From the NCBI GenBank assembly GCA_965279525.1, contig CBDIIB010000003.1, forward strand, positions 192,001 through 256,000: a stretch of 64,000 bases of DNA, given 5' to 3'. The notes below the pieces were generated by a model. That model was not told the origin of the DNA. It saw nothing but the letters and a program-made list of their open reading frames with translations, and did no database searches. Shown here one piece after another: positions 21,187-52,700 of the stretch. Position 1 is the first letter of the stretch. Each line of letters opens with the position of its first letter. The translations under genes were made by a program, and so were the position numbers. The DNA is from Tagaea sp. GTDB taxonomy: Bacteria; Pseudomonadota; Alphaproteobacteria; CACIAM-22H2.

Positions 21187-21189
21187 GGA

Positions 21190-35645: not shown

Positions 35646-35732
35646 ATGGTATTGCGGACGGTTCCAGAATGGCCCTGTTCTACCGACCAAAATAGCGTCG
35701 ACACTTGTCGTCGCATCAAAAGGAGGCCCGCC

Positions 35733-36797
35733 ATGAACATGAAGCCAAGAACACTTTCGATCCTCGCCGCGGTGCTGATGGGAAGTGCAGCACTCACGCT
35801 CGCGACACGCGACGCGAATGCCCAGACGATCACGGTCGTTTCCTTCGGCGGTTCCTATCAGGACGGCCAGAGCAAGGCCCTGTTCCAGCCTGCCGCAAAG
35901 GCACTCGGGATCACCGTCAAGGAAGAGACCTATACGGGCATTGCCGACCTGCGGCTCAAGGTGAGGGCCAATGCCGTGACCTGGGACATCGTCGCCAGCG
36001 GCTCGGGCAGTGCCGCGCGGGCGGGCGCCGAAGGCATCCTCGAGAAGCTCGACTACAAGATCATCGATACGAAGGACTTCCTGCCGAATCTTGCCGGCGA
36101 ATACTGTGTCGGCGGCGACGTGTTCTCGACCGTGCTCGCCTGGAACACCAAGACCTACGGCAACAACGGCCCGCAGAGCTGGGCGGACTTCTGGGACGTC
36201 AAGAAGTTTCCCGGCAAGCGTTCCTACCGCAAGGGTGTTGCAGGCGCTCTCGAGCCGGCCCTGATGGCTGACGGCGTGGCGCCGGCGGATGTCTACAAGG
36301 TACTGGGGGCACCCGGCGGCATCGAGCGCGCGATCAAAAAGATCAAGGAACTGAAGCCGCACGTCGCCGTGTGGTGGTCGTCCGGGGCGCAGCATGCGCA
36401 GCTTATGAAGGACGGCGAAGTCGACATGATCACCGGCTGGAACGGCCGCTTCGACGTGGTTGCGAAGGACGGTGCGCAGGTCGCATACACCTTCAACCAA
36501 GCGCTGCTCGACTATGACTGCTTCGGCATTCCCAAGGGCGCGCCGAACAAGGACCTCGCCATGAAGTTCCTGGCCGAGGTCAGCAAGCCGCAGTACCAGG
36601 CAGAGTTCACGAAGTACATCACCTACGGGCCGACCAACAAGAAGGCCTACGACCTCGGGACCATCGACGCGGCCTATGCCAAGCGGCTGCCGTCGCATCC
36701 GGACAATGCGGCCAAGCAGGTCACGGTCGATCTCGAATGGTACATCAAGTTCGAGGCGCAGGCCGCGGCCGCCTACGAGAACATGCTGACCGAATAG
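35733..36797 (+). CDS. Polyamine/opine-type ABC transporter substrate-binding protein (PotD/PotF-like)
   Basis: AGGAGG RBS; signal peptide; SFGGSYQ, PQSWADFWDVKKFPGKR, WNGR. Confidence 0.92.
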   Translation: MNMKPRTLSILAAVLMGSAALTLATRDANAQTITVVSFGGSYQDGQSKALFQPAAKALGITVKEETYTGIADLRLKVRANAVTWDIVASGSGSAARAGAEGILEKLDYKIIDTKDFLPNLAGEYCVGGDVFSTVLAWNTKTYGNNGPQSWADFWDVKKFPGKRSYRKGVAGALEPALMADGVAPADVYKVLGAPGGIERAIKKIKELKPHVAVWWSSGAQHAQLMKDGEVDMITGWNGRFDVVAKDGAQVAYTFNQALLDYDCFGIPKGAPNKDLAMKFLAEVSKPQYQAEFTKYITYGPTNKKAYDLGTIDAAYAKRLPSHPDNAAKQVTVDLEWYIKFEAQAAAAYENMLTE

Positions 36798-36805
36798 GCG
36801 ACTGG

Positions 36806-36839
36806 CGGAATGCGGCGTGCACCGGCACGCCGCATTCCG
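36806..36839 (+). terminator. Perfect 15-bp stem hairpin after the SBP gene
   Basis: CGGAATGCGGCGTGC-ACCG-GCACGCCGCATTCCG followed by TTCCC. Confidence 0.7.
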
Positions 36840-36869
36840 TTCCCGCCGGACGACGGATAGAGTGTGGAC

Positions 36870-37946
36870 ATGGCACGCGAGGCAGCACTCCCCATCACCA
36901 TCCGGCAGTTGACCAAGAGCTACGGCAAGCTCCGGGTCCTCGATTCGGTCGATCTTGATATCCGCAGCGGCGAGTTCCTCACGCTGCTGGGCCCGTCAGG
37001 GTCGGGCAAGACGACCTTGCTGATGATGCTGGCCGGGTTCGTACGTCCCGATCACGGCAGCCTGAAATTCGGAGATCGTGAAGTCATCCGACTGGCGCCT
37101 CACAAGCGCGACGTCGGGATGGTCTTTCAGAACTATGCGCTGTTCCCGCACATGGATGTGGCGGCAAACATCGCGTTCCCGTTGAAGCTGCGTGGCATTG
37201 CAGGCGGCGAGGTCGGCCGGCGTGTCGAGCAGGCGCTCGAACTCGTCAAGCTTGGCGGATATGGCGCGCGACGGATAGACCAGCTCTCCGGCGGTCAGCG
37301 CCAGCGCATCGCGCTCGCTCGCGCGATCGTCTTCGAGCCGCGTATCCTCCTGATGGACGAGCCGCTGTCCGCCCTCGACAAGCAGCTTCGCGAGCATATG
37401 CAGATCGAGCTCCGCCAGCTTCACGAACGTCTCGGGATGACGACGGTCTATGTCACGCACGACCAGCGCGAGGCGTTGACGATGTCGGACCGTATCGCGG
37501 TCATCGACCAAGGCAGCATCATGCAGATTGCCCCGCCGCGCGATCTGTACGAGCGTCCGGCCAATCGTTTCGTTGCCGAGTTCATCGGGGAATCGACGTT
37601 CGTTCCGGTCGACGTGGCGGATGGCGAATGCCGTCTCGACGGCACGACGCTGCGGCTGGCGGAGCGCCCGGCAGGCAAGGGCGGGCGCCTGCTGATGATC
37701 CGGCCCGAGCGGCTTGCGATCCTCGGTGACGGACCGGCTGATGATTTCAACGTACTGCCCGCGAAGGTCCTGGCCGCGATCTACCAGGGCGACAGCGTCC
37801 TGCTGCATGCCGCGATCGGCGGCGGTACGCGCGTCGCCGTGCGTGGCACGGCATCCGGCCGGTTGCCGCGCGCCGGCGACGTTCTGCGCCTCGGCCTTCG
37901 TCCGGCTGACACCTATCTGCTTTCCGAAAGCGAGCCATCTTCGTGA
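36870..37946 (+). CDS. PotA-like ABC transporter ATP-binding protein
   Basis: [25 protein letters not shown]-like C-terminus. Confidence 0.95.
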   Translation: MAREAALPITIRQLTKSYGKLRVLDSVDLDIRSGEFLTLLGPSGSGKTTLLMMLAGFVRPDHGSLKFGDREVIRLAPHKRDVGMVFQNYALFPHMDVAANIAFPLKLRGIAGGEVGRRVEQALELVKLGGYGARRIDQLSGGQRQRIALARAIVFEPRILLMDEPLSALDKQLREHMQIELRQLHERLGMTTVYVTHDQREALTMSDRIAVIDQGSIMQIAPPRDLYERPANRFVAEFIGESTFVPVDVADGECRLDGTTLRLAERPAGKGGRLLMIRPERLAILGDGPADDFNVLPAKVLAAIYQGDSVLLHAAIGGGTRVAVRGTASGRLPRAGDVLRLGLRPADTYLLSESEPSS

Positions 37947-38830
37947 CGCAGGCCGCGCTCAACGCGACCGGGCTGCGTCGCGACGCGTTCCTCGAACGTC
38001 TGGCGTTGTTCGGTCTCAGCGGGCCGGCGGTGCTGCTGGTCTTCGTGACGATGGTGCTTCCCGTCGGCTGGCTGTTCTGGCTGTCGTTCCTCGACGACAC
38101 CGGCGCGCTCAGTCTCGAGCATTATCGACGCATGATCGAGCAGCCGTCCTATGGGCGCACATTCCGCACGACATTCGAAGTCAGCCTCCTGACCACCGGA
38201 ATCTGCGTTGCGCTTGGCTATCCTCTTGCCTATGTGCTGTCACAGTTACCGCGGCGAGTGGCAAATCTCTGCATGATCGCGGTCATGCTGCCTTTCTGGA
38301 CGTCACTCCTGGTGCGGACATACGCATGGCTTGTACTTCTTCAGCGGCGCGGGGTCGTCAATAGTTGGGGAATCAAGCTCGGACTTTGGGACGAGCCGCT
38401 GACGCTGGTGAACAACCTGAATGGCACGCTGATCGGGATGGTCCACATCATGCTGCCGTTCCTCGTGCTTCCGGTCTACGGATCGATGCGCGCGATCGAC
38501 CGGGATTTCCTCAAGGCCGCCGCCAATCTGGGTGCAAGTCCGGTACGCGCGTTCTGGCAGGTCTTCCTGCCGCTCTCGATGCCGGGCCTCGTCGCGGGGG
38601 TCCTCATCGTTTTCATCCTTTGCCTCGGCTTCTATGTCACCCCGGCCGTCCTCGGCGGCGGCAAGGTCACGATGGTGGCCAACCGAATCGCGACCGACAT
38701 CGAGGTTTTCTTCAACTGGGGAGCGGCGAGTGCGCTCGGTGTCGTGCTCTTCGTACTGACGATGGTCCTTCTCTATATCGCGGCCCGCTTGGTCGGGTTG
38801 AACCGCGTGCTGGGCGGGAGCGACTCATGA
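37943..38830 (+). CDS. PotB-like ABC permease
   Basis: PFWTSLLVRTYAW; AAANLGAS. Confidence 0.93.
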   Translation: MTQAALNATGLRRDAFLERLALFGLSGPAVLLVFVTMVLPVGWLFWLSFLDDTGALSLEHYRRMIEQPSYGRTFRTTFEVSLLTTGICVALGYPLAYVLSQLPRRVANLCMIAVMLPFWTSLLVRTYAWLVLLQRRGVVNSWGIKLGLWDEPLTLVNNLNGTLIGMVHIMLPFLVLPVYGSMRAIDRDFLKAAANLGASPVRAFWQVFLPLSMPGLVAGVLIVFILCLGFYVTPAVLGGGKVTMVANRIATDIEVFFNWGAASALGVVLFVLTMVLLYIAARLVGLNRVLGGSDS

Positions 38831-39642
38831 GGTGGCTCGACAATGCCGCAAGCGAGACACAGATCACGCACCGGCACCGGCTCTGGCTCTACGTGCTCGC
38901 TGGATTCGTCATGATTTTCCTCATGCTGCCGACACTCATCGTCATCCCGATGTCCTTCTCGGAGTCGCAGTATCTCGAGTTTCCGCCGCGCGAATGGTCG
39001 CTGCGCTGGTATCGGAACTATTTCGACTCCGTCTCGTGGATGCAGGCGACGGCGACGTCCTTCAAAGCCGGGATCCTGACCATGCTGGTCTCGACCACGG
39101 TCGGAACGATGGCCGCCTACGGCCTGCACACGTCGCGGTTCCGCTGGACCGGCCCGATACTGGCGCTTCTTCTGACGCCCATCATCGTCCCGGTAATCCT
39201 TGTCGGCATCGGTGTCTTCTATGCGTATGTGCGGCTCGGGCTCGTGAATACGCTGACGGGCATCGTGCTTGCGCACAGCATGCTCGCAATCCCGCTGGTC
39301 GTGATGGTCGTTTCGTCGGCGCTCAAGAGCTTCGACATGAACCAGGAACTGGTCGCGCGCAGCCTCGGCGCCTCCCGTCCGCGCGCCTTCTTCCTCGTCA
39401 CGCTGCCGCAGATCCGTTTCGCGGTCATCACCGGCGCGGTGCTTTCGTTCCTGACATCGTTCGACGAAGTGATCGTGGCGCTTTTCATCTCCGGCGGTCC
39501 GAATTCGACGCTGACGCGGAACATGTTCGCAGCGCTGCGCGATCAGATCGATCCGACGATCGCGGCGATCTCGACGCTCGTGGTTCTTCTCACATCGGCG
39601 CTTCTGGCCCTGTCCCAGCTGCTCGGCAAGTCGGAGCGTTGA
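38827..39642 (+). CDS. PotC-like ABC permease
   Basis: SLRWY, ARSLGAS, SFDEV; ATGA overlap at 38827. Confidence 0.93.
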   Translation: MRWLDNAASETQITHRHRLWLYVLAGFVMIFLMLPTLIVIPMSFSESQYLEFPPREWSLRWYRNYFDSVSWMQATATSFKAGILTMLVSTTVGTMAAYGLHTSRFRWTGPILALLLTPIIVPVILVGIGVFYAYVRLGLVNTLTGIVLAHSMLAIPLVVMVVSSALKSFDMNQELVARSLGASRPRAFFLVTLPQIRFAVITGAVLSFLTSFDEVIVALFISGGPNSTLTRNMFAALRDQIDPTIAAISTLVVLLTSALLALSQLLGKSER

Positions 39643-39896
39643 TACGTTTCATCCCGTCGTCATTCGACTTTGTCTGCTGAAAATTCCTTCTCGATCTGTC
39701 GAGCGTCAGTCCAATTAACGACCTAATTTTCAGCGGTTAGCCCGCTCGCTGCCCTGCAACGCCTCGACGGCCGGTCGAGTGATTCCGGTGGAATATCAAG
39801 GCAGCATGAGCGTTCTCTCGATGCGTCGGCCATAAGATTGCGTTGGCAAATTAATGCACCCATAATGGTTGAATAACCCGGGAGCATCGTCAGAAA

Positions 39897-40754
39897 GTGC
39901 CGGCCAGAAGCCCGCAAGGAACAGCAGGCTCGCCCTCAGCTTGGGGGCTCATCGGATTTGGCATTTATTTGTGTTTTCTCATTCAGTCAGCGGGTGCGCA
40001 GGCGGTCAATCAGTCACCAGAGTTGAGTGCCGCAACGGGAGCCCTTCGCGCGCGCAGCGAAGAGTTCAAACGGGAGGATCAAGCCTACAGATCCGTCCAG
40101 ACCGGTCAGAAAATGTCGACGGCCGAGCGCGACGACTATGCGGAGTTTGTTGCCGGTCTCCGCCGGAAATTTCTCGAGCAGTGCGAAGTGGTCCGAGGCC
40201 TTGGCGGTGAAAGCGCCATTGCCGAGTTCGACTGCGTCCGCGCCGGACCGCTTGTCGCCCGCGCGAGTCTCGCTCCTGTTCAAGCGGTCCAGACGGACGA
40301 CGAAAAGCGAGCGGCAGTTCAGGCGCGCCTGAACCAGATCGAGGGTGCGATCGATGAGGATCTGTTGAAGCGCCAGCAGGAGATCAAGCAGGCCGATGCC
40401 CAGCCTTCCGGGGGCAGTGCTGCCGGAGGTGCGTCAGGTCAGTCTGGCAGCGGCGGCCAGGGAGGGAGCGGCGCCAGCCAGGCAGCCGCAGCGCAGGCCG
40501 CAGGCGGTGGTGCACGTGCCGGTTCCCCGAACAGCTCGACGGCATCGGCTGCGAACGCCGGACAAGGCCTGGCCTCACCCGGCGCATCTCCGCCTGCAGC
40601 AGGCCAGCATGAACGGCAGGCAGTTGCCGACGGCGGCGTTGGCGACGACATCGTTGCACGCCAGCTAAGGGAGGCCGCCGAGAGGGAAGCCGATCCGGCG
40701 CTCCGGGAAAAACTCTGGGCCGAATATCGAAAGTATCGGGAGGCAAAAAAGTGA
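39897..40754 (+). CDS. Hypothetical secreted protein (helical, G/S/A-rich linker, charged C-terminal helix)
   Basis: Signal-like segment ending AGAQA; C-terminal DDIVARQLREAAEREADPALREKLWAEYRKYR; GTGA coupling to the next gene. Start uncertain. Confidence 0.75.
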   Translation: MPARSPQGTAGSPSAWGLIGFGIYLCFLIQSAGAQAVNQSPELSAATGALRARSEEFKREDQAYRSVQTGQKMSTAERDDYAEFVAGLRRKFLEQCEVVRGLGGESAIAEFDCVRAGPLVARASLAPVQAVQTDDEKRAAVQARLNQIEGAIDEDLLKRQQEIKQADAQPSGGSAAGGASGQSGSGGQGGSGASQAAAAQAAGGGARAGSPNSSTASAANAGQGLASPGASPPAAGQHERQAVADGGVGDDIVARQLREAAEREADPALREKLWAEYRKYREAKK

Positions 40755-42079
40755 AGTGGGCAGGATACTTGATCCGGGTGGCTGTTCCGTGCGCGCTTTC
40801 ACTTTTTGTTGGTGCCTGCGCGGCGAACTACCCGACGCGGACGGTGTCGTATACCGAGACCAAGCTCGAGCGTCCCGACGCGCAGCAGTCGGAATCCGAT
40901 CTTCTGAATGTCAGGATCGAGGTTTTCGAGAAGGGGGAACTGCCCGACGATCCGAACGTCCGCAGAGGGCTTTCGCCCGATATCCGAAATGCCGAGGCTT
41001 ACTACGTTCCGACCCAGATCAAGAATGCAATGCAACGCTCCGGGCATTGGGGGCAGGTTCGTGTGGTTCCGTCGGGTGGACGGGAGGGCGAGGTTCATAT
41101 CAGCGGGAAAATCCTCGAATCGGATGGCGAGGTCCTCAAGCTCGAAGTGCAGGTCAGAGATGCTACCGGTGCGCCGTGGTTTACCAAGCGATACGAGAGC
41201 GTCATCGACGCCGCCGCGTACAGCAAAGCCGAAGCGGCCCGCGTCGATGCGTTTCAGGACACTTATAACCAGATCGCCAACGACGTCGCGGCCTACAGGA
41301 AGCACCTGAAGTCCGGGGATGCTGCGGAAATCCGGCAGGTGGCGGAGCTGCGCTTTGGCGCCGACTTCGCGCCGTCGGCATATGGGAGTTTCATCAAGAA
41401 GACGGAGACTCCGACACCGGCGCAGTCGGACGTATTGCAGCGGCTGTGGGGGGCAATAAGCCGCGACCAGAAGCCCTCCGCCCGCGTCCCTGCGTATACG
41501 GTCGATCGGCTTCCGTCCGAAGACGATCCCGTTGTCCAGCGGGTCAGTCGAATCAGGGCCCGCGAGGAGTTTCTGATCGACACGCTCGACCAGCAGTATG
41601 ACGGGTTGGCCAAGTCGATCAGCGATCCTTACACGCTCTGGCGGACGTCGCGCCTGAAGGAGATCAATGCGATCCGGGCCGTCGACAAGGTCCAGAACGA
41701 GGAGCAGGCAAAGGCCGTTGCTGCCGGTGTCTTTGGCGTACTTTTGGGTGTTGCCCTGGCTTCACAAAGCAATAGCGGCGGTGGCTGCTATGGCTGTACG
41801 ACTGCCGGTGTCGCGGTTGCGGCAGGTGCTGTCGCGATCGGCGTCCAGATGGCGACGCGTGCGTCCGAGCAGGCCGCCTCGGAGACCGCACTTCGGCGCA
41901 CCGCACTGGAAGAGCTCGGGAACTCGCTTGCGACGGACGTCAAGCCGACGGTGGTCGAAGTTGAAGGCAAGACCGTCGAACTGAAGGGGACCGTCGAGGA
42001 GAAGTTCAAGGCTTGGCGTGAAGTCCTGCAGTCGCTCCAGGAACTCGAGACGGGACAGCCGGCCCCCGCAACCTCCTAG
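40751..42079 (+). CDS. Hypothetical lipoprotein with C-terminal hydrophobic glycine/alanine hairpin
   Basis: Lipobox VGAC; alpha/beta N-domain; VAAGVFGVLLGVALAS...GVAVAAGAVAIGV. Confidence 0.8.
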   Translation: MKWAGYLIRVAVPCALSLFVGACAANYPTRTVSYTETKLERPDAQQSESDLLNVRIEVFEKGELPDDPNVRRGLSPDIRNAEAYYVPTQIKNAMQRSGHWGQVRVVPSGGREGEVHISGKILESDGEVLKLEVQVRDATGAPWFTKRYESVIDAAAYSKAEAARVDAFQDTYNQIANDVAAYRKHLKSGDAAEIRQVAELRFGADFAPSAYGSFIKKTETPTPAQSDVLQRLWGAISRDQKPSARVPAYTVDRLPSEDDPVVQRVSRIRAREEFLIDTLDQQYDGLAKSISDPYTLWRTSRLKEINAIRAVDKVQNEEQAKAVAAGVFGVLLGVALASQSNSGGGCYGCTTAGVAVAAGAVAIGVQMATRASEQAASETALRRTALEELGNSLATDVKPTVVEVEGKTVELKGTVEEKFKAWREVLQSLQELETGQPAPATS

Positions 42080-42099
42080 CCGCCGTCGGGTCGTTACGC

Positions 42100-43551
42100 A
42101 TGCAGTCCGCCTCCCGGTCGACGCGCAAGATCGTCATATCCGCGGCACTTCTTGCCGCTCTGGCGTCTATCGCGATTTATGTCGTTCTTGTCCTGCCGGA
42201 GCGGGTCCAGCAGGTGGGCAAGCCGTTGCCGCCGACTGGTCGTGCCGATGTTGCCTCACCGCCGCCGCAGCGTCCAGCCATAGACGCTGCTCCTGCGCCG
42301 GCCCAAGCGGAAAATGACCGGCTTGTAGCCGAAGCTTCCCAAGCGTCGGCTCTCCAGAAGCTGGCAAAGCTCGAAGGCGAAGGTGCGCGCGTCTGGGGCG
42401 CGGAAATGCTGTCTGGCACGGGCATGGCTTTGGTTGAAGAGGCCTTGGCGAAGGCAAATGGAGCGATTGTTCGGCGCGCATTTGGCGATGCCAGCTCCGC
42501 TTTCGCAGAGGTCGGCGCGCAACTCGATCGTCTGGCAGATTCGAAGCCTGAACGCCTTGCGCGGGCCATGGCGGAGGGGGCTGCCGCGCTGGCCGGGCTC
42601 GATGCGCCGTCGGCCTTGAAGCAGTTCACGATCGCCGCGGCGGCGGCGCCCGGAAACGCCGAAGCGGAACGCGGACTTGACCGGGCGCGCAAGCTCCCGG
42701 AGGCACTGGCAAGCGTCGCCGCCGGCGATGCAGCGGTTGCCGCACGGGATTTTCCGACCGCGAAGTCGGCATATCAGAGGGCTGGCGAAATCGATCCCGG
42801 CCTCGCCGTTGCGCGGGAGAAGCTCCGCGACATCGATGCGCGGATATCCGCTCAGGCCTACCAGTCCGCAGTTACCGAAGCTGTCGCACGCCTCCGGGAG
42901 GGAAATGCGAAGTCGGCAGAAACCGCACTTGCGCGCGCCCAAAGGTTACGCCCGAATGCCCCAGAGCTTGCCGATCTACGGATGCAGATTGCCGCGGCAT
43001 CCAAACTTTCGGAAATCCGGCGTCTCCAGGGTGCGGCAGAAGCGATGGAGCGTCAGGAAAAATGGTCCGAAGCCGCAAAAGCGTACGAGCAGGTATTGGC
43101 ACTCGACGCCAGCGCTGCGTTCGCCGGACGGGGTCTGGAGCAGGCAAAACACCTCGCGGCACTGCATGGTTTGATCGACGGATATCTTGCGAGCCCGGAG
43201 CGACTGCGATCATCCGAGCCTCGTTCACATGCGCAGGCGGTTCTCGGTCAAGCCAGTGCATCGGAGCCGGGTCCGGTATTGCGCGGAAAAGCCGATCGGC
43301 TAACCGAACTTCTGGCGGCGGCGCAGGCACCGATTCCAGTGACACTCAAGTCCGACAACGCGACACAGATCGAGATCCTGCGCGTCGGCCCTTTGGGAAT
43401 TTTCGAGAGGCATAGCCTGTCGCTCATTCCAGGTCGGTATACGGCCGTCGGACGGAGAGCCGGATATCGGGATGTTCGTGTACAGTTCGAAGTGGCCCGA
43501 GCCGAACAACCGCTGGAGATCGTCGTGCAGTGCATCGAGAGGATCCGTTGA
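42100..43551 (+). CDS. Membrane-anchored TPR-like protein with C-terminal PEGA-like domain
   Basis: N-terminal TM, Pro-rich linker, TPR-like turns (APGNAEAERGL, IDPGLAVA, LRPNAPEL, LALDASAAFA); PGRYTAVGRRAGYRDVR. Confidence 0.8.
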   Translation: MQSASRSTRKIVISAALLAALASIAIYVVLVLPERVQQVGKPLPPTGRADVASPPPQRPAIDAAPAPAQAENDRLVAEASQASALQKLAKLEGEGARVWGAEMLSGTGMALVEEALAKANGAIVRRAFGDASSAFAEVGAQLDRLADSKPERLARAMAEGAAALAGLDAPSALKQFTIAAAAAPGNAEAERGLDRARKLPEALASVAAGDAAVAARDFPTAKSAYQRAGEIDPGLAVAREKLRDIDARISAQAYQSAVTEAVARLREGNAKSAETALARAQRLRPNAPELADLRMQIAAASKLSEIRRLQGAAEAMERQEKWSEAAKAYEQVLALDASAAFAGRGLEQAKHLAALHGLIDGYLASPERLRSSEPRSHAQAVLGQASASEPGPVLRGKADRLTELLAAAQAPIPVTLKSDNATQIEILRVGPLGIFERHSLSLIPGRYTAVGRRAGYRDVRVQFEVARAEQPLEIVVQCIERIR

Positions 43552-45968
43552 CAAAGCTCCGGTTCGAGCGGGCCGGCGACGGGCCTACATTCCAGGAATC
43601 CGACTTTCCGCTGGCGGTCGGACTGACGGCGCGTGGTGTGGAAATCGGCCCATCAGCCGCCGGCACGACGGTTGCCTGGCTCCTGCAGCATCCCAAAGGT
43701 CTGTCACTCCAGCCGGAAAGTTCGGGCATCTCGTTCCTCGTGAACGGTGCGCCGCTTCTGCGTGCCGTATGGATAACCGGAGGCGATCGAATACAGATCG
43801 ACAGGCATTCTCTGGTCGTCGACTGGTCCGGAGACGTGCCCTGCCTGCGGGCGGTGGATCAGACGCCGGACGGCCCGACAGACGTACCGGTTGAAGGTGC
43901 ATTGCTGGAACAGGCAGAGCGGATCGGACGGAAATTCGACGATCCAGGACGGGCCAACTCGGGCAAGGGCCGCCACAAGGCGAGGATTTTCGCGGCCGTG
44001 TCGGCATTTGCCGTGCTCTGCGCTGGTGTCGCATTCGTGCTGCTCGCATCGCCGATCAACCTGCGCTTCACGCCCGATGCCGACACGGTCTCGATCACCG
44101 GGTTCCCGCCTTCTTTCCAGGTCGGGGATCGCCATCTTGCCCTGCCTGGCACTTATCGGGTGGAGGCACGGAAGGAAGGTTTCAAGGACATCGATCGCAG
44201 GATCGTCGTCGAATATGGCACCGCCCCGTTGCATGATCTCGCTTTCCAGAAGCTCGACGGCGTCTTGCGGGTCACGACGAAGCCGATCGACGGTGCGAAG
44301 GTTCTTGTGGACGGCATCGAGCGGGCGTCGACGCCTGCCGAGATCGAAGTTGCGGCCGGAACCCGAGACATCAGTGTCACGGCTGACCGGTACCTTCCCG
44401 AAAGCCGGCAACTGGCAGTCGAGGGGATGGGGCGGCGGCAGGATCTCGAGATCGAGATGAAGCCGGCCTGGGCGGAAATCCGGATTTCTTCCCGACCTGC
44501 CGGTGCGCAGGTGAAAATCGGCAGCGATGCTGTCGGAACGACGCCCGTCGTCACCCAGGTACTTCAAGGTGAACAGGATCTCGAAGTCTCACTGGCAGGC
44601 TGGAAGACGATCCGCCGCAAGTTGGCTGTCAAAGCCGGTGTTCCGGAAGCACTTCCGACCTTCGAGATGGAGCGGCTTGATGGCGTACTCGCTCTGGTAT
44701 CCGAGCCGACGGGCGCAACGGTCACGGTGAACGGGCAGTTTCGAGGCCAGACCCCGCTCTCGATCTCGCTTGTCGGGGACAGGGACTATCAGGTGGTTCT
44801 CTCGAAGTCCGGCTACGAAAATGAAACGCGCTCTTTCCGGATCGAGGGTGAAAGAACGAACCGAGGCAGCATCCAGCTGCAGCCCGAGTACGGAACCGTT
44901 TTCGTGACGATCAGCCCGCCCGGGGCGACGCTCAGGATCAACGGCAAGGCAAACGGAAGCGGCTCGCAGAGACTGTCGCTCCAGACACTGCCGCAGACCC
45001 TTGAAGTCGACATGCCCGGCCATGAATCCCAGAAGATGGCGGTGACGCCGCAGAAGGGCGTCGCGAAGCGGCTCGACATCACGCTCAAGACCGTTGGTCA
45101 GGCGATGCGGGACAAGTACGGACGAGGCATCGTCAGCGCCGGTGGCGAGAAGCTCGTCTTGGCCCAGTTCACGGAGCCAGTCGCGATCATGATCGGCTCC
45201 CCTCGGCGGGACCCATCGCGCCGATCCAACGAGACGGAGTATCAGGTCGAACTCACGCGCTCCTTCCTCATCAGCGAGAAGGAGGTGACCAATGCGGATT
45301 TCAAGAAATTCAAGCCCGGACATTCGTCAGGCTCGATCCAGGGGGCGAGTCTCGATGGCGCCGACCAGCCGGTCGTGAACGTCTCGTGGGAGGATGCCGC
45401 ACGCTATGCAAACTGGCTCAGTTCGAAGGAGGGGCTGGTCCCGGCCTACCGCGAGCAAGGCGGAAAGGTCGCTGCCGTCCATCCGCTTACGAACGGATAT
45501 CGCCTTCCGACCGAAGCGGAATGGGAGTTTGTCGCAAGATATGAAGCCATCGCGCGGGCGGGCGCTCAGCCTTTGCGGTTTCCTTGGGGCGATGCCGCGA
45601 CGACGCCGGCTGGCAGCGGGAACTTCGCACACGACGGCTCGGGGCTGCCACTTACGATTCCGGGCTATGTCGACCAGTATGTCGGATCGGCGCCGGTCGG
45701 AAAATTCCCGCCGAACCGGGCCCAGATCTACGATCTCGCAGGAAATGTCGCGGAATGGTGCCATGATTACTACGATGTGACGCTCGGTCCGTCGACGGGC
45801 ATCAAGCGCGATCCGGCCGGTCCGGCGGAGGGAAGATTTCATGTTGTCAAAGGATCGAGCTGGCGGACGGGAAGCCTGGCGGAGTTGCGATTTGCCTATC
45901 GCGACTACACCGAAAAGCCTCGCGATGACCTCGGCTTCAGGGTGGCGAGATATGTCGATGCACCTTGA
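43548..45968 (+). CDS. FHA-like + TM + PEGA repeats + FGE-sulfatase (SUMF1/GldK-like) domain protein
   Basis: FLVNG..GGDRIQI; TM; repeated S-P-GA-V-(I/V)(D/N)G PEGA units; EVTNADF, PVVNVSWEDA, YRLPTEAEWE, DLAGNVAEW, GFRVAR. TTGA overlap with GAGAGGA RBS. Confidence 0.88.
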   Translation: MTKLRFERAGDGPTFQESDFPLAVGLTARGVEIGPSAAGTTVAWLLQHPKGLSLQPESSGISFLVNGAPLLRAVWITGGDRIQIDRHSLVVDWSGDVPCLRAVDQTPDGPTDVPVEGALLEQAERIGRKFDDPGRANSGKGRHKARIFAAVSAFAVLCAGVAFVLLASPINLRFTPDADTVSITGFPPSFQVGDRHLALPGTYRVEARKEGFKDIDRRIVVEYGTAPLHDLAFQKLDGVLRVTTKPIDGAKVLVDGIERASTPAEIEVAAGTRDISVTADRYLPESRQLAVEGMGRRQDLEIEMKPAWAEIRISSRPAGAQVKIGSDAVGTTPVVTQVLQGEQDLEVSLAGWKTIRRKLAVKAGVPEALPTFEMERLDGVLALVSEPTGATVTVNGQFRGQTPLSISLVGDRDYQVVLSKSGYENETRSFRIEGERTNRGSIQLQPEYGTVFVTISPPGATLRINGKANGSGSQRLSLQTLPQTLEVDMPGHESQKMAVTPQKGVAKRLDITLKTVGQAMRDKYGRGIVSAGGEKLVLAQFTEPVAIMIGSPRRDPSRRSNETEYQVELTRSFLISEKEVTNADFKKFKPGHSSGSIQGASLDGADQPVVNVSWEDAARYANWLSSKEGLVPAYREQGGKVAAVHPLTNGYRLPTEAEWEFVARYEAIARAGAQPLRFPWGDAATTPAGSGNFAHDGSGLPLTIPGYVDQYVGSAPVGKFPPNRAQIYDLAGNVAEWCHDYYDVTLGPSTGIKRDPAGPAEGRFHVVKGSSWRTGSLAELRFAYRDYTEKPRDDLGFRVARYVDAP

Positions 45969-46191
45969 AGCAGTCAGGCGCGTGGTCCTGGCGATCGTGA
46001 TTCTTCTCTCAGTGGCACCGGCCGCGATCGCCCAAGCCGCAGATCCGGCCAGGACACCGGCAGCGCCACCATCTGCGCCGGTGACGCCAAGTGCCGCTCA
46101 GGCGGCACCACCCCAACAGCCGCCTTCCACCTTCCGTCCGGCCGAGCTGGTTTCGCCAAGCCGCAAGCTCTCCATGCCGAACGACATGTAA
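45958..46191 (+). CDS. Small secreted protein (signal peptide, Pro/Ala linker, short C-terminal motif)
   Basis: RRVVLAIVILLSVAPAAIAQA then a PA-rich linker and FRPAELVSPSRKLSMPNDM; fills the operon gap. Confidence 0.65.
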   Translation: MHLEAVRRVVLAIVILLSVAPAAIAQAADPARTPAAPPSAPVTPSAAQAAPPQQPPSTFRPAELVSPSRKLSMPNDM

Positions 46192-46201
46192 GGGACCGAC
46201 A

Positions 46202-46999
46202 ATGCGCAGGTTGTTTCCGACCGAGTTCATCTTCCAGATCGCATCGCTTCTCGTCTCGTTCATCGTCGTGCACGCGTTCTACGTTGCCGAGGTGCGCCCG
46301 AACGCCGAGATTTTCCTCACCCAGGAGCGCGCCAAGGCGTCGATCGATCCGTCTTACGAAATGCAGCAATCGATCTTCGTGATCCTTCGCGACTACGAGC
46401 AGGAAGCATGTTTCGTGCTGATGTTCTGGGCGATCGCGATCCTCGGATACAAAGGTTACAAAGTTTACCGGCAGCAGCGGCAGCTCGAGCTCGATCTGGT
46501 CGGGTTACCCGAGGAGGCGACGGTCACCGTCGAGACCGCACGCCAGACCTCGACCTTGATCCGAAAACGGCTCGACGTGGAGCAGCAGGATTTCCTGCTC
46601 TCCCGGTCGATGCTTGCGGCGATCGATCGGTTCTCGGTGACACGGAACGTCCAGGACGCCTCCAGTGTCGTGCACACGATCTGCGATGCCGAGTCCGAGC
46701 GGCTCGACACGGACCTTTCGATCATCCGCTATGTCGCGTGGGCAATTCCTTCGATCGGCTTCATCGGCACGGTCCGGGGCATTGGCGACGCGCTGACCAA
46801 GGTGCAGAAGGCCGTGGCCGGCGATATCACCGGCGTTACGGACAGTCTTGGAACCGCGTTCAATTCGACACTCATCGCCCTGCTGATATCGATCGTGCTC
46901 ATGTTCGTGATCCACCAGATGCAGTCTGCGCAGGAAAAGCTCGTGCTCGACACGCGGCGCTATTGCGACGATTGGCTTGTCCGTCGCCTCAGAAGCTAG
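46202..46999 (+). CDS. MotA/TolQ/ExbB proton channel family protein
   Basis: AIPSIGFIGTVRGIGDAL and LGTAFNSTLIALLISI (TM signature with conserved Pro/Gly/Thr); two N-terminal TMs. Confidence 0.9.
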   Translation: MRRLFPTEFIFQIASLLVSFIVVHAFYVAEVRPNAEIFLTQERAKASIDPSYEMQQSIFVILRDYEQEACFVLMFWAIAILGYKGYKVYRQQRQLELDLVGLPEEATVTVETARQTSTLIRKRLDVEQQDFLLSRSMLAAIDRFSVTRNVQDASSVVHTICDAESERLDTDLSIIRYVAWAIPSIGFIGTVRGIGDALTKVQKAVAGDITGVTDSLGTAFNSTLIALLISIVLMFVIHQMQSAQEKLVLDTRRYCDDWLVRRLRS

Positions 47000-47017
47000 G
47001 CGGCCGAGGGAGATGGC

Positions 47018-48112
47018 ATGAAGGGCAGGCGCGAAGCACCCGGGGGGCTGATATCGTTCCTCGACGTCATGTGCTGCGGCTTCGGTGCCGTCGTTCTTCT
47101 TGTCGTCATCCTGAACGGCAATCTCGTACAGAAGCGCGAGACGCAGTCCGAAGCGATGCGGGAGGAGGTCAGGCAACTCACCCAGCTGGAGTCATTCGCA
47201 CGGCAGGAATTGGCCCAGACCGGCGCCGAACTTGCGGGCGTCGAGGAGCAGAGGGCCTCGGTCAGCGCCCAGGCGGCACGGCTTGAGGCAAGGCTGCGCG
47301 ATACGCGCAGCCGGACCCAGGAAGTCCAGGCGCGGGCGGAGGCGCTGCAATCCTCCATCGCGACACTCCAGACGCAGAGTGCGGCGGTCGAGCAGGCCGT
47401 GACGCTGCTGAGATCGAAGGCGACCCAGCAATGGGATGGCGGGCGCCGGCCGGTCGGATTCTCCGGCGATGGCCAGAGGCAGTATTTGACCGGGCTCAAG
47501 CTCGGCGGCGAGCGGACGCTGATCCTGCTCGACTCGTCGGCAAGCATGCTCGACGAAACCATCGTCAACGTGGTGCGGTGGCGGATCACGGAGCCCGCGA
47601 TCAAGCGAACCGCGCCAAAATGGCAGCGCACGACGCGGACCTTGCATTGGCTCGTCGCGAATCTTCGACCCGGCAAGCAATTCCAAGTCTACCAGTTCAA
47701 TGCCTCCGCATCTCCACTGCTTGCCGGAACGGAAGGAAAGTGGCTTAGCACCAACGATACGGCGAGCCTGACTGGCGCACTGGCGGCCGCATCACAGATC
47801 GTGCCTGCCGGTGGCACCAGCCTGCATCGGGCATACGCGGTCATCGCGCAGATGAAACCGCCGCCGGACAGCGTTGTCGTGCTTACGGACGGACTGCCGA
47901 CCCTCGGCGTGCGCGAAGAGCCCGGCCGGCTTGTCTCGGCGGAAGAGCGGCTGACCCTTTTCAGCGATGCGATCCGGCTCATTCCGGGATCGATACCGGT
48001 AAATACGATCCTGTTTCCGATGGAAGGGGATCCCGCGGCGGCAGGCGCTTTCTGGCAACTTGCGCTCATGACGCAGGGCTCGTTCATGACACCGGCAAGG
48101 GATTGGCCGTGA
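47018..48112 (+). CDS. ExbD/MotB-like TM + coiled coil + vWA domain protein 1
   Basis: Basic N-terminus, SFLDVMCCGFGAVVLL TM, long heptad region, MIDAS DSSAS...GGT...LTDGLP. Confidence 0.85.
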   Translation: MKGRREAPGGLISFLDVMCCGFGAVVLLVVILNGNLVQKRETQSEAMREEVRQLTQLESFARQELAQTGAELAGVEEQRASVSAQAARLEARLRDTRSRTQEVQARAEALQSSIATLQTQSAAVEQAVTLLRSKATQQWDGGRRPVGFSGDGQRQYLTGLKLGGERTLILLDSSASMLDETIVNVVRWRITEPAIKRTAPKWQRTTRTLHWLVANLRPGKQFQVYQFNASASPLLAGTEGKWLSTNDTASLTGALAAASQIVPAGGTSLHRAYAVIAQMKPPPDSVVVLTDGLPTLGVREEPGRLVSAEERLTLFSDAIRLIPGSIPVNTILFPMEGDPAAAGAFWQLALMTQGSFMTPARDWP

Positions 48113-49116
48113 TGCGAAAGGCGCGCCGGGAAGCGGAAACCTTCAGCCTTTCATTCCTCGACATCATCGCGTGCGGGTTCGGGGCAGTGATCCTGCTTCT
48201 GATCATGACGCTGGCATTCGAGCCGAGCACGATCCGGGAGGTGGTCAGGAATCTTGAAACAGAAGCCGCCCAGAGCCGAGCCAGCCGTGATTCGCTGAAC
48301 ACGGAACGTCAGGCCCTGTCGCGCGAATTGCAGCAGAAGCGGGACGACCTGTCCCGGATGCAGGCGCAGATCTCGTCGTTGAGTGCGGAGATGGATCGTG
48401 CCGACAGGCAATTCGGAACCGTCCGGGCAAGTGCCGAGACCAACGTCCGCATCGAGGAGCAGCTGAAGAACGTCCAGCAGTCGCTGACCGAAGAAATGCG
48501 CCGGCTGATGGGGCGCCCGGAGGAGCGGAAGCCCAACCTGGATGCGCCGATCGGCGGGATACCGGTCGATAGCGAATACATCATCTTCATCATCGACACG
48601 TCGGGAAGCATGAAGATCGGGGCCTGGCCGCTGGTCGTGCGCAAGGTGCAGGAAGTTCTCGAGGCCTATCCGAAGGTAAAGGGATTCCAGGTCATGAATG
48701 ATGTCGGGACGTATATGTTCCCGACATATGCCGGACAGTGGATTCCCGATACGCCCGGGCGCCGATCGGTGGTTCTGAGCCAGCTCCAGAACTGGAACAG
48801 CTTCAGCCGGAGCAACCCGGCACCGGGCATCATTCAGGCGATCAGGACGTTCTATCGCCCCGACCAGCCGACCAGTCTTTTCATCTTCGGCGACGACTTC
48901 AACGGCACGAGCATCGACGAAGTGGTCAATGTCGTCTCCCAAAGCAATCGCCGCGACGCGCAGGGAAACGTGCCGATCCGGATCCACACATTCGGGTTTC
49001 CGGTATTGCCTGTTTACACCAAGCAGATCGAGAATTTCACCCGCTTCGCCCACTTGATGCGAACCCTTGCGGAGCGGAATGCGGGAACTTTCGTCGGCTT
49101 GAACTCGGTTCGTTGA
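48109..49116 (+). CDS. ExbD/MotB-like TM + coiled coil + vWA domain protein 2
   Basis: MRKARRE, SFLDIIACGFGAVILL TM, coiled coil, IFIIDTSGSM, IFGDDF; GTGATG overlap. Confidence 0.85.
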   Translation: MMRKARREAETFSLSFLDIIACGFGAVILLLIMTLAFEPSTIREVVRNLETEAAQSRASRDSLNTERQALSRELQQKRDDLSRMQAQISSLSAEMDRADRQFGTVRASAETNVRIEEQLKNVQQSLTEEMRRLMGRPEERKPNLDAPIGGIPVDSEYIIFIIDTSGSMKIGAWPLVVRKVQEVLEAYPKVKGFQVMNDVGTYMFPTYAGQWIPDTPGRRSVVLSQLQNWNSFSRSNPAPGIIQAIRTFYRPDQPTSLFIFGDDFNGTSIDEVVNVVSQSNRRDAQGNVPIRIHTFGFPVLPVYTKQIENFTRFAHLMRTLAERNAGTFVGLNSVR

Positions 49117-49184: not shown

Positions 49185-49691
49185 CTAGGCGTGCTTGGGA
49201 ATTGAGATGCGGCCGTCCGCCTTCACTTCCTCCATCACGACATAGGTGCGCGTCTCGCGGATGTGCGGCACCTCGGCCAGCGCCCTGCCGAGAAAGTGAC
49301 GATAGGCCTGCATGTCGCAGACGCGCACCTTCAGCAGATAGTCGAACCCGCCGGCAACCATGTGGCACTCCGCGACCTCGACGAGCGCTTTCACCGCCTG
49401 CGAGAAGCGGTCGAACGCCTCATGCGAGGTGCGGTCGATCGCCACTTCCACGAAGACGACGAGACCGGCATCGAGCGGTACCGGATCGAGTTCGGCCCGG
49501 TAGCCGCGGATCACGCCGTCGCGTTCGAGCCGGCGCACGCGTTCGAGGCAGGGTGTCGGGCTGAGGCCGACACGCCTTGCAAGTTCGACATTCGTCAGGC
49601 GTCCGTCAGACTGGAGTTCGCCAAGGATCTGAAGGTCGATCGGGTCGAGACGCGTGCCGAGCAAGTTGGCCTCCGAATGCAGCGGAAACAA
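49185..49691 (-). CDS. putR: Lrp/AsnC family regulator (PutR)
   Basis: LDPIDLQILGELQSDGR, GLSPTPCLERVRRLE, GGFDYLLKVRV; divergent from putA. Confidence 0.88.
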   Translation of the reverse strand: MFPLHSEANLLGTRLDPIDLQILGELQSDGRLTNVELARRVGLSPTPCLERVRRLERDGVIRGYRAELDPVPLDAGLVVFVEVAIDRTSHEAFDRFSQAVKALVEVAECHMVAGGFDYLLKVRVCDMQAYRHFLGRALAEVPHIRETRTYVVMEEVKADGRISIPKHA

Positions 49692-49785: not shown

Positions 49786-52700
49786 ATGCAAAATCCCGAC
49801 ATTGCCGCATCGATCGGACCCAAACTGGCGGGGGAGGCCGATGTGCTCGAGCGGCTGCACGCGGCAGCGGTGCTGCCCGATGGTCATGCCGCCCGCATCG
49901 ATTCAGACGCGCAGGCGCTGGCCGGCCGGTTACGCGAGCGCGTGCCCGGACAGGTCGGCGTCGAGACATTCCTTGCCGAGTTCGATCTGTCGACCAACGA
50001 AGGCGTGGCACTGATGTGCCTCGCCGAAGCGCTGCTGCGCATCCCGGATTCCGCGACGATCGACGCACTCATCGGCGACAAGCTGGGAACGGCCGACTGG
50101 GACCGGCACCTCGGTCACGCGGACTCGGTGCTCGTGAACGCGTCGGCCTGGGGGCTCGCACTCACCGGCCGTTTCGTCGAATGGACCGGTCGCGAAAGCG
50201 GCGGGGCGGCCGAGCTGGTACGTCGCACGCTGGGCCGGCTTGGTGCGCCCGTCCTGCGCGGTGCCATCGAGGCGGCGATGCGCATCATGGGCCAGCAGTT
50301 CGTGATGGGCCAGACGATCGCGGCCGCTCTCGCCCGCGCGAAGAACGCCGGTCCGGGCTATCGGCATTCGTTCGACATGCTCGGCGAAGCCGCGCGCACG
50401 CAGGAGGATGCCGAGCGCTATTTCGAGAGCTATGCGGCCGCCATCACCGCGATCGCAGGTGCTTGCGCCGGCAAGGATCCGCATGCGAACCCGGGCATTT
50501 CGGTGAAGCTCTCGGCCCTGCACCCGCGCTATGAACCGACGAAGCGCGCCCGCGTGACAGGCGAGCTTGTTCCGCGCGTGGCGGCACTGGCGCGTCAGGC
50601 CGCGCAAGCAGGCATCAATTTCACGATCGACGCGGAGGAATCGGACCGTCTTGTCGTTTCGCTCGAGATCCTCGGCGAACTCGCGCGCGACCGGAGTCTC
50701 GCGGGCTGGGACGGACTGGGACTGGCCGTGCAGGCATACCAGAAGCGGGCATTGGGTACTGTCGGCTGGGTCGCGGAGCTCGCGCGCGCCAACCGGCGCC
50801 GCTTCATGGTGCGTCTGGTAAAGGGCGCCTATTGGGACAGCGAGATCAAATGGGCGCAGGAAAAGGGCCTCTCGGACTATCCGGTTTTCGTGCGCAAGGC
50901 CGCGACGGACCTTTCCTACCGTGCGTGTGCGGCAACGATGCTGCGTGCGCAGGACGCGATCTACGGCCAGTTCGCCACGCACAATCCGCGCTCGGCGCTC
51001 GAGATCCTCGCGATGGCCGGCAACCGCACCGATTTCGAGTTCCAGAAGCTGCACGGCATGGGCGACGGGCTCTACGACCTGCTCGCCGAACGGCTCGGCG
51101 AACGCTTCGCCGTGCGCGTCTATGCGCCCGTCGGCGCACACCGCGACCTGTTGCCCTATCTGGTCCGCCGCCTGCTCGAAAACGGGGCCAACACCTCGTT
51201 CATCCACCAGGTCGCCGACCGCGAGATCCCGCTCGCGCGCATCGTCGCCGACCCGGCTGCGGCCCTTGCCGCCGCCACGCCCTCGGTCCGTCCGCCCACG
51301 GCCCTCTTCGCCGACAGGGTGAACGCGCGCGGGCTCGACCTTGCCGACGATGCCTTGCGCGCACGCCTCGTGGCGCGCATCGCCGCCGACAGGGACGCCG
51401 CCGGTACCGGCGGCGTTCGCGAACCTGCCGATCCGCGCCGATCCGTCGGCGAATGCAGGAGCATGAACCAGGCCGAAGTCGCCGCCACCGTGGGCACGGC
51501 TGCGCGCGCCTTCGTCGACTGGCGCCGGATGCCGGTCGCAGAGCGTGCCTCGATCCTCGAACGTGCGGCTGGGCTTTTCGAGGCGAACGACCACGAGCTC
51601 ATGTCGCTGGTCGTTCGCGAGGGTGGGCGCACGATCCCCGACGCGCTTTCCGAACTGCGCGAGGCTGTCGACTTCCTGCGCTATTATGCGGGCCGCGCAC
51701 GGCTCGATTGCGGACCGGTCCAGCTGCCGGGACCGACCGGCGAGCGCAATACCTTGGCACTGGAAGGGCGCGGCGTGTTCGCTTGCGTCAGCCCGTGGAA
51801 CTTCCCGCTCGCCATCTTCGTCGGCCAGATCGCGGCCGCACTTGCCGCCGGCAACGCCGTCGTCGCCAAGCCCGCCGAGCAGACGCCGCTGACCGCCGCA
51901 CGCGCGGTGGCATTGCTGCACGCCGCCGGCGTGCCGGCCGATGTCCTGCAACTCGTCTTCGGCGGGCGCGAGACCGGTGCCACACTCGTCGGCGATCCGC
52001 GCATCGCCGGCGTGGCCTTCACCGGCTCGACCGCGACGGCCAAGTCGATCCAGCGCGCCCTCGCCGCGAAGGACGGCCCGATCGTCCCGCTGATCGCCGA
52101 GACCGGCGGCGTCAATGCCATGATTGCGGACAGTTCGGCGCTGACCGAGCAGCTTGTCAACGACGCGATCGTGTCGGCCTTCCAGAGTGCCGGTCAACGC
52201 TGCTCCGCCCTGCGCGTGCTTTTCGTGCAGGAAGACGCCGCCGACCGTACGATCGCGATGCTGCGCGGTGCCATGGCCGAACTCCAGATCGGCGATCCGG
52301 CAGACCCCGCGACCGATGTGGGTCCCGTGATCGACGCGGCGGCCAAGCGGATGCTCGAAGCCTATATCGACGAGAACCGTGCGCATGTCGTGGCGCGCGC
52401 GGCGCTGCCGGCAGGTCTCGGCGGCGGACATTTCGTGGCGCCGGTGGCGCTCGAGGTCCAGATGAATGCAGCACCCATGCACGAGATCTTCGGCCCGGTG
52501 CTCCACGTCGTGCGCTGGAAAGCGGACGCGCTCGACGACGTGCTCGCGCGCGTCGCCGCGACCGGCTATGGCCTAACGCTTGGTATTCACAGCCGCATCG
52601 ACGGGTTCCAGCGCCGCATCGCGGCCGCGCTGCCGGTCGGGAACGTCTACGTGAACCGCTCGACCATCGGGGCCGTTGTCGGCGTGCAACCCTTCGGCGG

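Follow-up and report, generated by a model that had tools for sequence, protein, structure and literature searches.

An eight-gene cassette of Tagaea sp. probably encodes an envelope machine built around a TolQ-like channel and paired vWA axle proteins

What do eight tightly packed genes do together when they combine a TolQ/ExbB-like channel with membrane-anchored vWA proteins, and does their product belong to a known kind of envelope motor? We addressed this question for a 64,000-nt stretch of DNA from the alphaproteobacterium Tagaea sp. (assembly GCA_965279525.1, contig CBDIIB010000003.1, positions 192,001 to 256,000), hereafter the window, in which the eight genes, designated g1 to g8, form a cassette at positions 39897-49116. 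Ion-driven motors of the 5:2 type power flagella, Ton import, the Tol-Pal system, gliding and type IX secretion (T9SS), and Zorya defence, and to our knowledge the central dimer of each is a small protein of the ExbD/TolR/MotB type. Our analysis suggests that the cassette probably encodes one envelope machine, in which a proton-driven motor of the 5:2 type is combined with a set of partners.

All eight open reading frames (ORFs) were present on the plus strand, overlapping or tightly packed, with intergenic distances from −22 to +20 nt (g1/g2, −4; g2/g3, +20; g3/g4, −22; g4/g5, −11; g5/g6, +10; g6/g7, +18; g7/g8, −1). Every product carried a signal peptide, a lipobox or a single transmembrane (TM) helix as judged from hydropathy and sequence, with one TM helix or signal anchor each in g2, g3, g4, g5, g7 and g8 by hydropathy, and all eight were predicted to be inner-membrane, periplasmic or lipoprotein. 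Searches of the cassette against NCBIfam and PADLOC gave no system assignment, and, for the cassette as well as the flanking genes, Pfam and PADLOC were negative for ExbD, TonB, TolA, OmpA, MoxR and Zorya effectors. A first-pass annotation, made by a model from the letters alone, had described eight co-oriented genes at these positions, a signal peptide or membrane anchor on every product and largely the same absences, and all three descriptions were borne out.

The putative motor core is encoded by the last three genes. The 265-aa product of g6 (46202-46999) is a TolQ/ExbB-like channel subunit, presumably of a pentameric stator. It matched the Pfam family MotA_ExbB (E 8.9e-14; 51.8 bits against a cut-off of 22.9) and also NCBIfam TolQ (E 6.8e-8; 32 bits against a cut-off of 221); in PADLOC, it gave a weak match to ZorA2 (20 bits). 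For the AlphaFold2 (AF2) model of g6, with a predicted local distance difference test (pLDDT) score of 84.7, the nearest solved structure found by Foldseek was Escherichia coli TolQ (9ddm_E; E 3.3e-4; template-modelling scores 0.56/0.65), followed by ExbB, with PomA and ZorA lower. The residues G189-T190-V191-R192-G193, N221 and T223 were invariant in all 34 homologues compared, and T190 and T223 sit in the last two membrane helices.

The following genes, g7 (47018-48112; 364 aa) and g8 (48112-49116; 334 aa), encode paralogues. At both N-termini, a short basic stretch precedes a single TM helix that contains F-L-D (Asp16 in g7, Asp17 in g8), followed by C-G-F-G. The helix of g7 resembles the trans-pore helix of ExbD, and the motif SHLS was absent from the helices of both proteins. 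Next come approximately 100 residues that matched coiled-coil models only, such as SMC and Rad50 (residues 38-138 in g7), and then a predicted periplasmic vWA domain with a metal ion-dependent adhesion site (MIDAS) motif, D172-x-S-x-S in g7 and D162-x-S-x-S in g8. The LD, CGFG and DxSxSM motifs and a later Asp were kept in at least 95% of 68 homologues of g7 and g8. More than 5608 relatives of g7 were found at E ≤ 0.001 (counted as clusters at 90% identity), all of them unnamed or called 'VWA domain-containing'. For g8, the ATG at 48112, which shares 1 nt with the g7 stop, is a more likely start than 48103 or 48109.

We then compared the histories of the two paralogues. In a quick maximum-likelihood tree covering 28 loci with calls for both genes, one branch separated g7-type from g8-type proteins (support of 100 in the Shimodaira-Hasegawa-like approximate likelihood ratio test, SH-aLRT), and the topologies on its two sides mirrored each other. 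This indicates an old duplication and a shared inheritance of the pair, which is what an obligate heterodimer would lead one to expect. The same tree mixed phyla, with the window grouping first with a metagenome-assembled genome (MAG) of Ferrovibrio and then with a verrucomicrobial MAG. Two metagenomic proteins, P0122 (700 aa) and P0121 (638 aa), were longer relatives of g7. P0122 could be aligned to g7 and g8 as one continuous chain, with an additional TM helix in its central part. We rejected a true g7-g8 fusion, as a TM helix at that place is topologically implausible; P0122 is probably an artefact of gene calling or stop loss, with read-through at the overlapping stop and start.

A channel of the TolQ/ExbB kind might be served by a partner encoded elsewhere, and we therefore turned to the whole genome. 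The Pfam search detected three MotA_ExbB genes and one ExbD-family gene (PF02472). This single ExbD-family gene adjoins its own TolQ gene on contig 2, where both belong to a TolQ-TolR-TolA(TonB_2)-TolB-Pal operon. The third MotA_ExbB gene, on contig 4, encodes a flagellar MotA with a MotA_N domain, and the only MotB_plug match (C4:718296) lies elsewhere on contig 4. With the ExbD gene already paired with TolQ and the MotA gene being flagellar, no unpaired canonical partner is left for g6. A second ExbB/ExbD pair, the canonical Ton energiser, was not found in the genome with the MotA_ExbB and ExbD Pfam models. The idea that g6 works apart from any ExbD/TonB pair at another locus thus stood, and for the same reasons g7 and g8 are likely to form the axle of a 5:2 motor around g6, as their motifs suggest.

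The first-pass annotation had also stated that the cassette matches none of the characterised motor classes, a statement that does not hold in this form, as the core had already been predicted. A computational study described a class consisting of a TolQ-like channel and TM-tethered 'TPH-vWA' proteins (Williams-Jones et al., Mol Biol Evol 2025;42:msaf138, PMC12204202). According to its text, the TPH-vWA genes tightly co-occur with tolQ homologues, without tolR or exbD and mostly as heterologous pairs; their trans-pore helix is TolR/ExbD-like, with a conserved Asp and without the SHLS motif; and AlphaFold3 (AF3) models of relatives place the vWA helices inside a TolQ-like pentamer with the Asp facing a ring of Thr. 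The class is reported there from Proteobacteria and Verrucomicrobia, with a seed from Idiomarina, and its function is given as unknown.

The cassette agrees with this description in gene content, in pairing and in the trans-pore helix. The tolQ-like g6 is linked to vWA genes in a cassette that has no tolR, exbD or motB; the vWA genes are a heterologous pair of paralogues, separated with full SH-aLRT support; the trans-pore helices carry the conserved Asp16 and Asp17 and no SHLS; and the invariant Thr190 and Thr223 of g6 are candidates for the Thr ring. In these three respects, g6 to g8 fit the TPH-vWA class as it is described in PMC12204202. The words 'PEGA' and 'sulfatase' do not occur in the main text of that article, nor are the five partner genes mentioned there; its figures and supplements may show neighbouring genes. 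A full-text literature search for the accessory gene combination returned only PMC12204202 and nothing on the five partners. The motor core is hence already in the literature; as far as our searches reach, neither the full architecture of eight genes nor its function has been described.

Is the cassette a unit or a chance neighbourhood? We scanned a collection with one genome per species for relatives of g7 and searched the resulting 57 loci with all eight products using tblastn. The loci came from at least three phyla and comprised Alphaproteobacteria, many Gammaproteobacteria, Desulfuromonadales/Geobacterales and one Puniceicoccaceae (verrucomicrobial) MAG; the g7 of the alphaproteobacterial Ferrovibrio MAG was 67% identical to that of the window. 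One of the carriers, Geothermobacter hydrogeniphilus HR-1 (L028), is cultivable. Thirty-three loci had at least 7.5 kb of sequence upstream of g7, and among these g1 was detected in 32, g2 in 26, g3 in 30, g4 in 32, g6 in 32 and g8 in 33, with strict colinearity with the window in 25. Such counts place the arrangement far beyond chance. Two gene orders occurred, g6 preceding g7 in 28 loci and following g8 in 21, so that g6 adjoined g7/g8 in 49 of the 57. Genes beyond the eight were not conserved between lineages.

The same result came from a second, independent sample, drawn evenly across the phylum and comprising 401 genomes, 329 of them of high quality. Nineteen genomes, including this one, were carriers (11 among the high-quality genomes), and 15 of the 18 other carriers belonged to one family with genomes of 1.4-3.1 Mb. 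All seven loci fetched from this draw carried g2, g3, g4, g6, g7 and g8 in order, with g1 in six and a g5-type peptide in six. The proposal of a syntenic, self-contained unit was thereby upheld, the same genes standing in the same order in several phyla. Among relatives of Tagaea, g7 was found in 3 of 41 overall and in none of the 20 congeners, and tblastn with g7 against 72,556 plasmid records gave no match. Relatives of the permease upstream of the cassette were present in 3 of 15 congeners (E ≤ 1e-60; 58-66% identity), none with lrp/putA within 1.5 kb. The comparison with congeners thus favours neither insertion nor loss.

Several loci departed from the common layout. On the complete 5.7-Mb chromosome of a gammaproteobacterium (L035), the locus comprised g5, gene X (described below), g7, g8 and g6, and g1 to g4 were undetected within 10 kb upstream, which makes it the sole clear departure from the full set among the long loci. 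Directly downstream of g8 in several gammaproteobacterial loci (L013, L016, L017, L018, L033, L047 and L058) there were two more lipoprotein genes (seven loci each) and an M48 metallopeptidase gene (six loci). Deltaproteobacterial loci had a gene for an M16-like peptidase upstream (six loci) and one for a Gly-zipper/TraT-like small lipoprotein downstream (five loci). These additional neighbours are possibly lineage-specific accessories. In one Desulfuromonadales locus (L024:8216-9177), an insert of approximately 1.2 kb between g5 and g6 contained tandem-repeat-like ORFs with a reiterated hydrophobic unit.

What do the five partners contribute? The largest, g4 (43530-45968), encodes an 812-aa bitopic protein with a cytoplasmic FHA-like region (approximately residues 1-115), a TM helix at 153-171 and, on the periplasmic side, four or five PEGA domains followed by an FGE-fold domain at the C-terminus. 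Pfam recognised PEGA (E 3.8e-40; four stretches) and FGE-sulfatase (E 4.9e-38). Against solved structures, the profile of the FGE domain matched human FGE (E 7.7e-32) and PorK (E 1.2e-27) about equally, and g4 matched the NCBIfam model of GldK (TIGR03525) at E 1.7e-25, with 90.2 bits against a cut-off of 350. No Cys of g4 aligned to the C-terminal active-site stretch of human FGE, and no Cys was invariant across 37 homologues. The lack of catalytic cysteines indicates a binding or structural domain, as in PorK and GldK, and the likeness to structural FGE-fold proteins that had been pointed out at the start is accordingly supported.

The N-terminus of g4 had no match in Pfam. Its best profile matches among solved structures were FHA domains, led by Ki-67 (E 1.2e-3) and followed by EmbR, EssC and Rv1747 (E up to 0.1). 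The FHA-like assignment proposed at the outset is consistent with these matches, which are weak even at their best. The region of approximately 110 residues occurred in alphaproteobacterial, deltaproteobacterial, verrucomicrobial and some gammaproteobacterial loci; an S-R-x-H-like stretch found in the deltaproteobacterial relatives was missing from the window protein. In 26 gammaproteobacterial loci, an extra gene for a cytoplasmic protein of approximately 432 aa, gene X, lies directly before g7 (for example, L048:8677-9975), and g4 there has only a short tail without the FHA-like domain. The C-terminal domain of the gene X product matched the g4 N-terminus (hhalign probability 89.6%, E 1.9e-6). 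The full-length X profile matched no solved structure at E < 0.06; such similarity as appeared concerned the C-terminal part, the N-terminal ~300 residues being unmatched. The complementary occurrence of X and the g4 domain is that of a domain fission or fusion and ties a cytoplasmic FHA-like module to the system.

The gene g3 (42100-43551) encodes a 483-aa bitopic protein with an N-terminal TM helix (residues 11-29), periplasmic TPR repeats and a conserved, beta-rich C-terminus of approximately 70 aa. TPR (TPR_2) was detected in 27 of 28 family members and Pfam PEGA in none of the 28. The C-terminus aligned to the first PEGA-like repeat of g4 with an hhalign probability of 50.8% (E 1.6e-4), so this domain is possibly PEGA-like. 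Of the TM-TPR-PEGA layout first described for g3, the TM helix and the TPR part held, and the PEGA part received little support.

Three smaller or less familiar products, those of g1, g2 and g5, matched no family in Pfam or NCBIfam. The 285-aa product of g1 (39897-40754) is predicted to be secreted; it has a middle part of low complexity, rich in Gly, Ser and Ala, and a near-invariant C-terminal segment of approximately 33 aa with the motif …DDIVARQLREAAE.E.DP.L..KLW.EY.KY…, kept in most of 23 homologues and nearly identical across phyla. The N-terminus of g1 is signal-like and in gammaproteobacterial relatives is a lipobox, making these lipoproteins. In the ESM Atlas, g1 fell only into 'hypothetical protein' clusters.

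The product of g2 (40751-42079) is a 442-aa lipoprotein with its lipobox at Cys23 (invariant in 17 of 17 homologues), an N-terminal alpha/beta domain and a helical hairpin at residues 260-395. In its AF2 model (pLDDT 79.2; predicted template-modelling score, pTM, 0.76), residues ~40-190 aligned in VIA-align with FlgT of the LPHT ring (Z 10.4), XCC0632/DUF330 (10.2), PelC (9.9), TolB (9.0), the CsgG complex (8.8), PqiC (8.1), TraT (6.3) and LptE (6.2), and Foldseek agreed. Folds of this alpha/beta kind are characteristic of lipoproteins of the outer membrane, among them several ring-forming ones. The tip of the hairpin (~320-367) is Gly-rich and hydrophobic (stretches 320-338 and 349-367), with low model confidence. 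In the ESM Atlas, g2 belonged to unnamed clusters, and the nearest named entry was TraT (0.76).

Between g4 and g6 lies g5 (45958-46191, or from an alternative start at 45952), encoding a secreted peptide of approximately 77 aa in which a Pro-rich linker joins the signal peptide to a conserved C-terminus. In the family, this end has the consensus F.PSE.[IV]S.D..V.FP.DI-COOH, and the window copy ends …FRPAELVSPSRKLSMPNDM. In 46 of the 57 loci, including both those with g6 before g7 and those with g6 after g8, an ORF ending in [FM]P.D[IM]-stop came immediately after g4 (one of the 46 being a fragment at a contig edge), and the Pro and Asp within the last five residues were invariant in all 43 copies compared. 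This conservation marks g5 as a real gene, with its start at 45952 or 45958.

From these parts we infer the following stoichiometry, movement and contacts. Five copies of g6 would form a channel in the inner membrane, into the pore of which one g7 and one g8 would insert their N-terminal helices in place of TolR, ExbD or MotB. Protonation and deprotonation of Asp16 (g7) and Asp17 (g8) against Thr190 and Thr223 of g6 would produce relative rotation. No separate transducer of the TolA or TonB type would be needed, as the axle itself would continue as a heterodimeric coiled coil of approximately 100 residues which, at 0.15 nm per residue, would extend ~15 nm and bring its two vWA heads, both metal-binding, to the outer periplasm. 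The g4 stalk of PEGA domains is expected to attain a comparable height. The heads may then grip acidic ligands on a static scaffold of g4, g3, g2, g1 and g5, partners suggested by synteny only. Candidate contacts are the FGE-fold head of g4, the outer-membrane lipoprotein g2 and the near-invariant acidic C-termini of g1 and g5; the latter two, including the invariant Asp of the FP.DI end of g5, are also candidate MIDAS ligands.

The output would be mechanical work on an assembly near the outer membrane. We guess at envelope maintenance or remodelling, comparable to that of Tol-Pal or GldLM/PorKN, and prefer it to channel-mediated transport, given that the cassette lacks a channel gene. Any particular output is held with much less confidence than the combination of motor and partners. 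A more detailed version, which we put forward as speculative and rather doubtful as a whole, is a periplasmic 'winch': the axle would act as its own force transducer, its MIDAS heads cyclically gripping the FP.DI-COOH end of g5 and/or the g1 peptides, on a PEGA/FGE-TPR scaffold tied to a ring-forming lipoprotein and gated through the cytoplasmic FHA-like domain.

Several observations weigh against a single envelope machine driven by this motor. The vWA domains scored below the gathering cut-off of 27 bits for Pfam VWA_2 (g7, 23.4; g8, 22.2), and pore insertion of g7 and g8 is argued here from motifs and from published models of relatives. The FHA-like call for g4 and the PEGA-like call for g3 are weak. 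No recognised peptidoglycan-binding or outer-membrane-spanning domain was found among the eight products, and the term 'trans-envelope' would draw on protein lengths and on the fold of a lipoprotein. Nor were the accessory genes universal, with g2 undetected in 7 of the 33 loci with sufficient upstream sequence and g1 to g4 in one, and the distribution of g7 among congeners suggests that the cassette is dispensable at the genus level. Finally, PMC12204202 states that phenotypes of deletion mutants have yet to be reported.

How does the cassette relate to known motors? It resembles Tol-Pal in its TolQ-like channel, in a TPR protein (compare CpoB), in a lipoprotein whose N-terminal domain is similar to that of TolB (Z 9.0), and in that a task of exerting force on the outer membrane is plausible. 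However, it lacks TolR (PF02472), TolA, the TolB beta-propeller and an OmpA-type Pal, its axle itself bears the periplasmic stalk, and the genome has a separate canonical operon on another contig. It likewise resembles the GldLM (PorLM) motor acting with PorK/GldK-PorN, in which a 5:2-type motor has a shaft directed towards a non-catalytic FGE-fold near the outer membrane. However, g6 to g8 are not homologous to GldL or GldM, neither PorN nor Sov nor any other T9SS gene is present, and the FGE-fold of the cassette tips an inner-membrane-anchored PEGA stalk, whereas that of GldK/PorK belongs to a lipoprotein. The cassette is thus a member of neither system. It also differs from Ton (ExbB-ExbD-TonB) in having no ExbD or TonB_C, and from flagellar MotAB in that g6 lacks MotA_N and no MotB plug is encoded.

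A rival reading is a machine for surface motility or for adhesion and secretion, of the Agl-Glt or T9SS/gliding kind, that moves a vWA adhesin or drives a PorK/GldK-like FGE-fold ring in the service of an outer-membrane translocon. The relationship of the FGE-fold to PorK and GldK and the presence of vWA, TPR and FHA-like modules, as in Agl-Glt, would fit this explanation, and PMC12204202 suggests a gliding role for vWA transducers. The similarity to GldK, however, stops at 90 bits where the cut-off is 350, and neither GldL/M, PorN or Sov nor a secretin or beta-barrel was found among the eight products or the conserved neighbours. Every product is predicted to be inner-membrane, periplasmic or a lipoprotein, and the vWA heads, which the motor helix tethers to the inner membrane, could not extend to the cell surface.

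The myxobacterial Agl-Glt focal-adhesion machinery has a TolQ/R-type motor with two axle paralogues, AglQ and AglS, and shares with the cassette both this use of two different paralogues and the vWA, TPR and FHA modules of the wider system. However, AglQ and AglS are simple proteins of the TolR type, the vWA adhesin of that system, CglB, is a lipoprotein of the cell surface that is not fused to the axle, and none of the Glt outer-membrane barrels occurs in the cassette. Adhesion, motility, export and contact-dependent activity, the outputs first suggested for this locus, are guesses; the cassette has no gene for a surface adhesin, a substrate or a channel of the outer membrane. We regard a motility or secretion machine as improbable.

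A still smaller probability attaches to an anti-phage or stress system of the Zorya kind that senses envelope perturbation. Like ZorAB, the cassette combines a MotA/ExbB-family channel with a non-canonical partner and is patchily distributed (0 of 20 congeners, 19 of 401 genomes); the phylum-mixing tree and the weak ZorA match of g6 point in the same direction. However, PADLOC showed nothing beyond that 20-bit similarity and coiled-coil noise. The cassette has no ZorA tail, no ZorB-type peptidoglycan-binding domain, no ZorC/D-like genes and no nuclease, ATPase or other effector, and its flanks are metabolic and not those of a defence island. The concentration of 15 of the 18 other carriers in one family suggests stable vertical inheritance there, and no copy was found among the 72,556 plasmid records. 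Least probable of all is that there is no motor, with g7 and g8 being a vWA scaffold of the BatA/BatB kind or metal-dependent binders and g6 an unrelated or degenerate operon neighbour, since, even though the vWA and TolQ scores are low and membrane-anchored bacterial vWA proteins without motors are common, conservation across phyla extends to the TM Asp in each paralogue and to the Thr residues in g6, g6 adjoins g7/g8 in 49 of 57 loci and in two gene orders, and neither the cassette nor its flanks contain the AAA+ (MoxR) or DUF58 partner typical of Bat-type operons.

We conclude that the cassette is a real, uncharacterised variant of the 5:2 motor family. Its putative central dimer differs from the small proteins of the known motors in having a long coiled coil, two integrin-like metal-binding heads and a fixed set of five partners, three of which (g1, g2 and g5) lie outside any curated family, and the g7 family is large, with its thousands of clusters, and spread over several phyla. 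Working out the task of the cassette would add a new output to the motor family and test direct force transduction by an axle subunit. Should the winch prove correct, the functional classes of 5:2 motor would number seven, the new one using an integrin-like catch that depends on metal. Mutagenesis could be aimed precisely at the Asp, MIDAS and FP.DI residues that are conserved.

The surroundings of the cassette in the window are metabolic. Upstream, positions 35646-39680 encode an ABC transporter (solute-binding protein, ATPase and permeases); downstream, a convergent Lrp/AsnC regulator gene (49185-49691, minus strand) is followed by PutA (49786-52839). The mean G+C content at third codon positions was 0.72 in the cassette against 0.79 ± 0.085 in the 28 other genes of the window and was not distinctive. 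A scan for promoter-like sites returned none, and terminator-like sites numbered 11 against 8.8 ± 3.6 in shuffled sequence, both uninformative in a G+C-rich genome. At a distance from the cassette, a plus-strand run at 10383-21903 contains genes for an acyltransferase, a LolA-like protein, a 772-aa protein without a Pfam family, a beta-ketoacyl synthase, an ApeP-like dehydratase and a short-chain reductase, and looks like a cluster for lipid biosynthesis and export of the aryl-polyene type.

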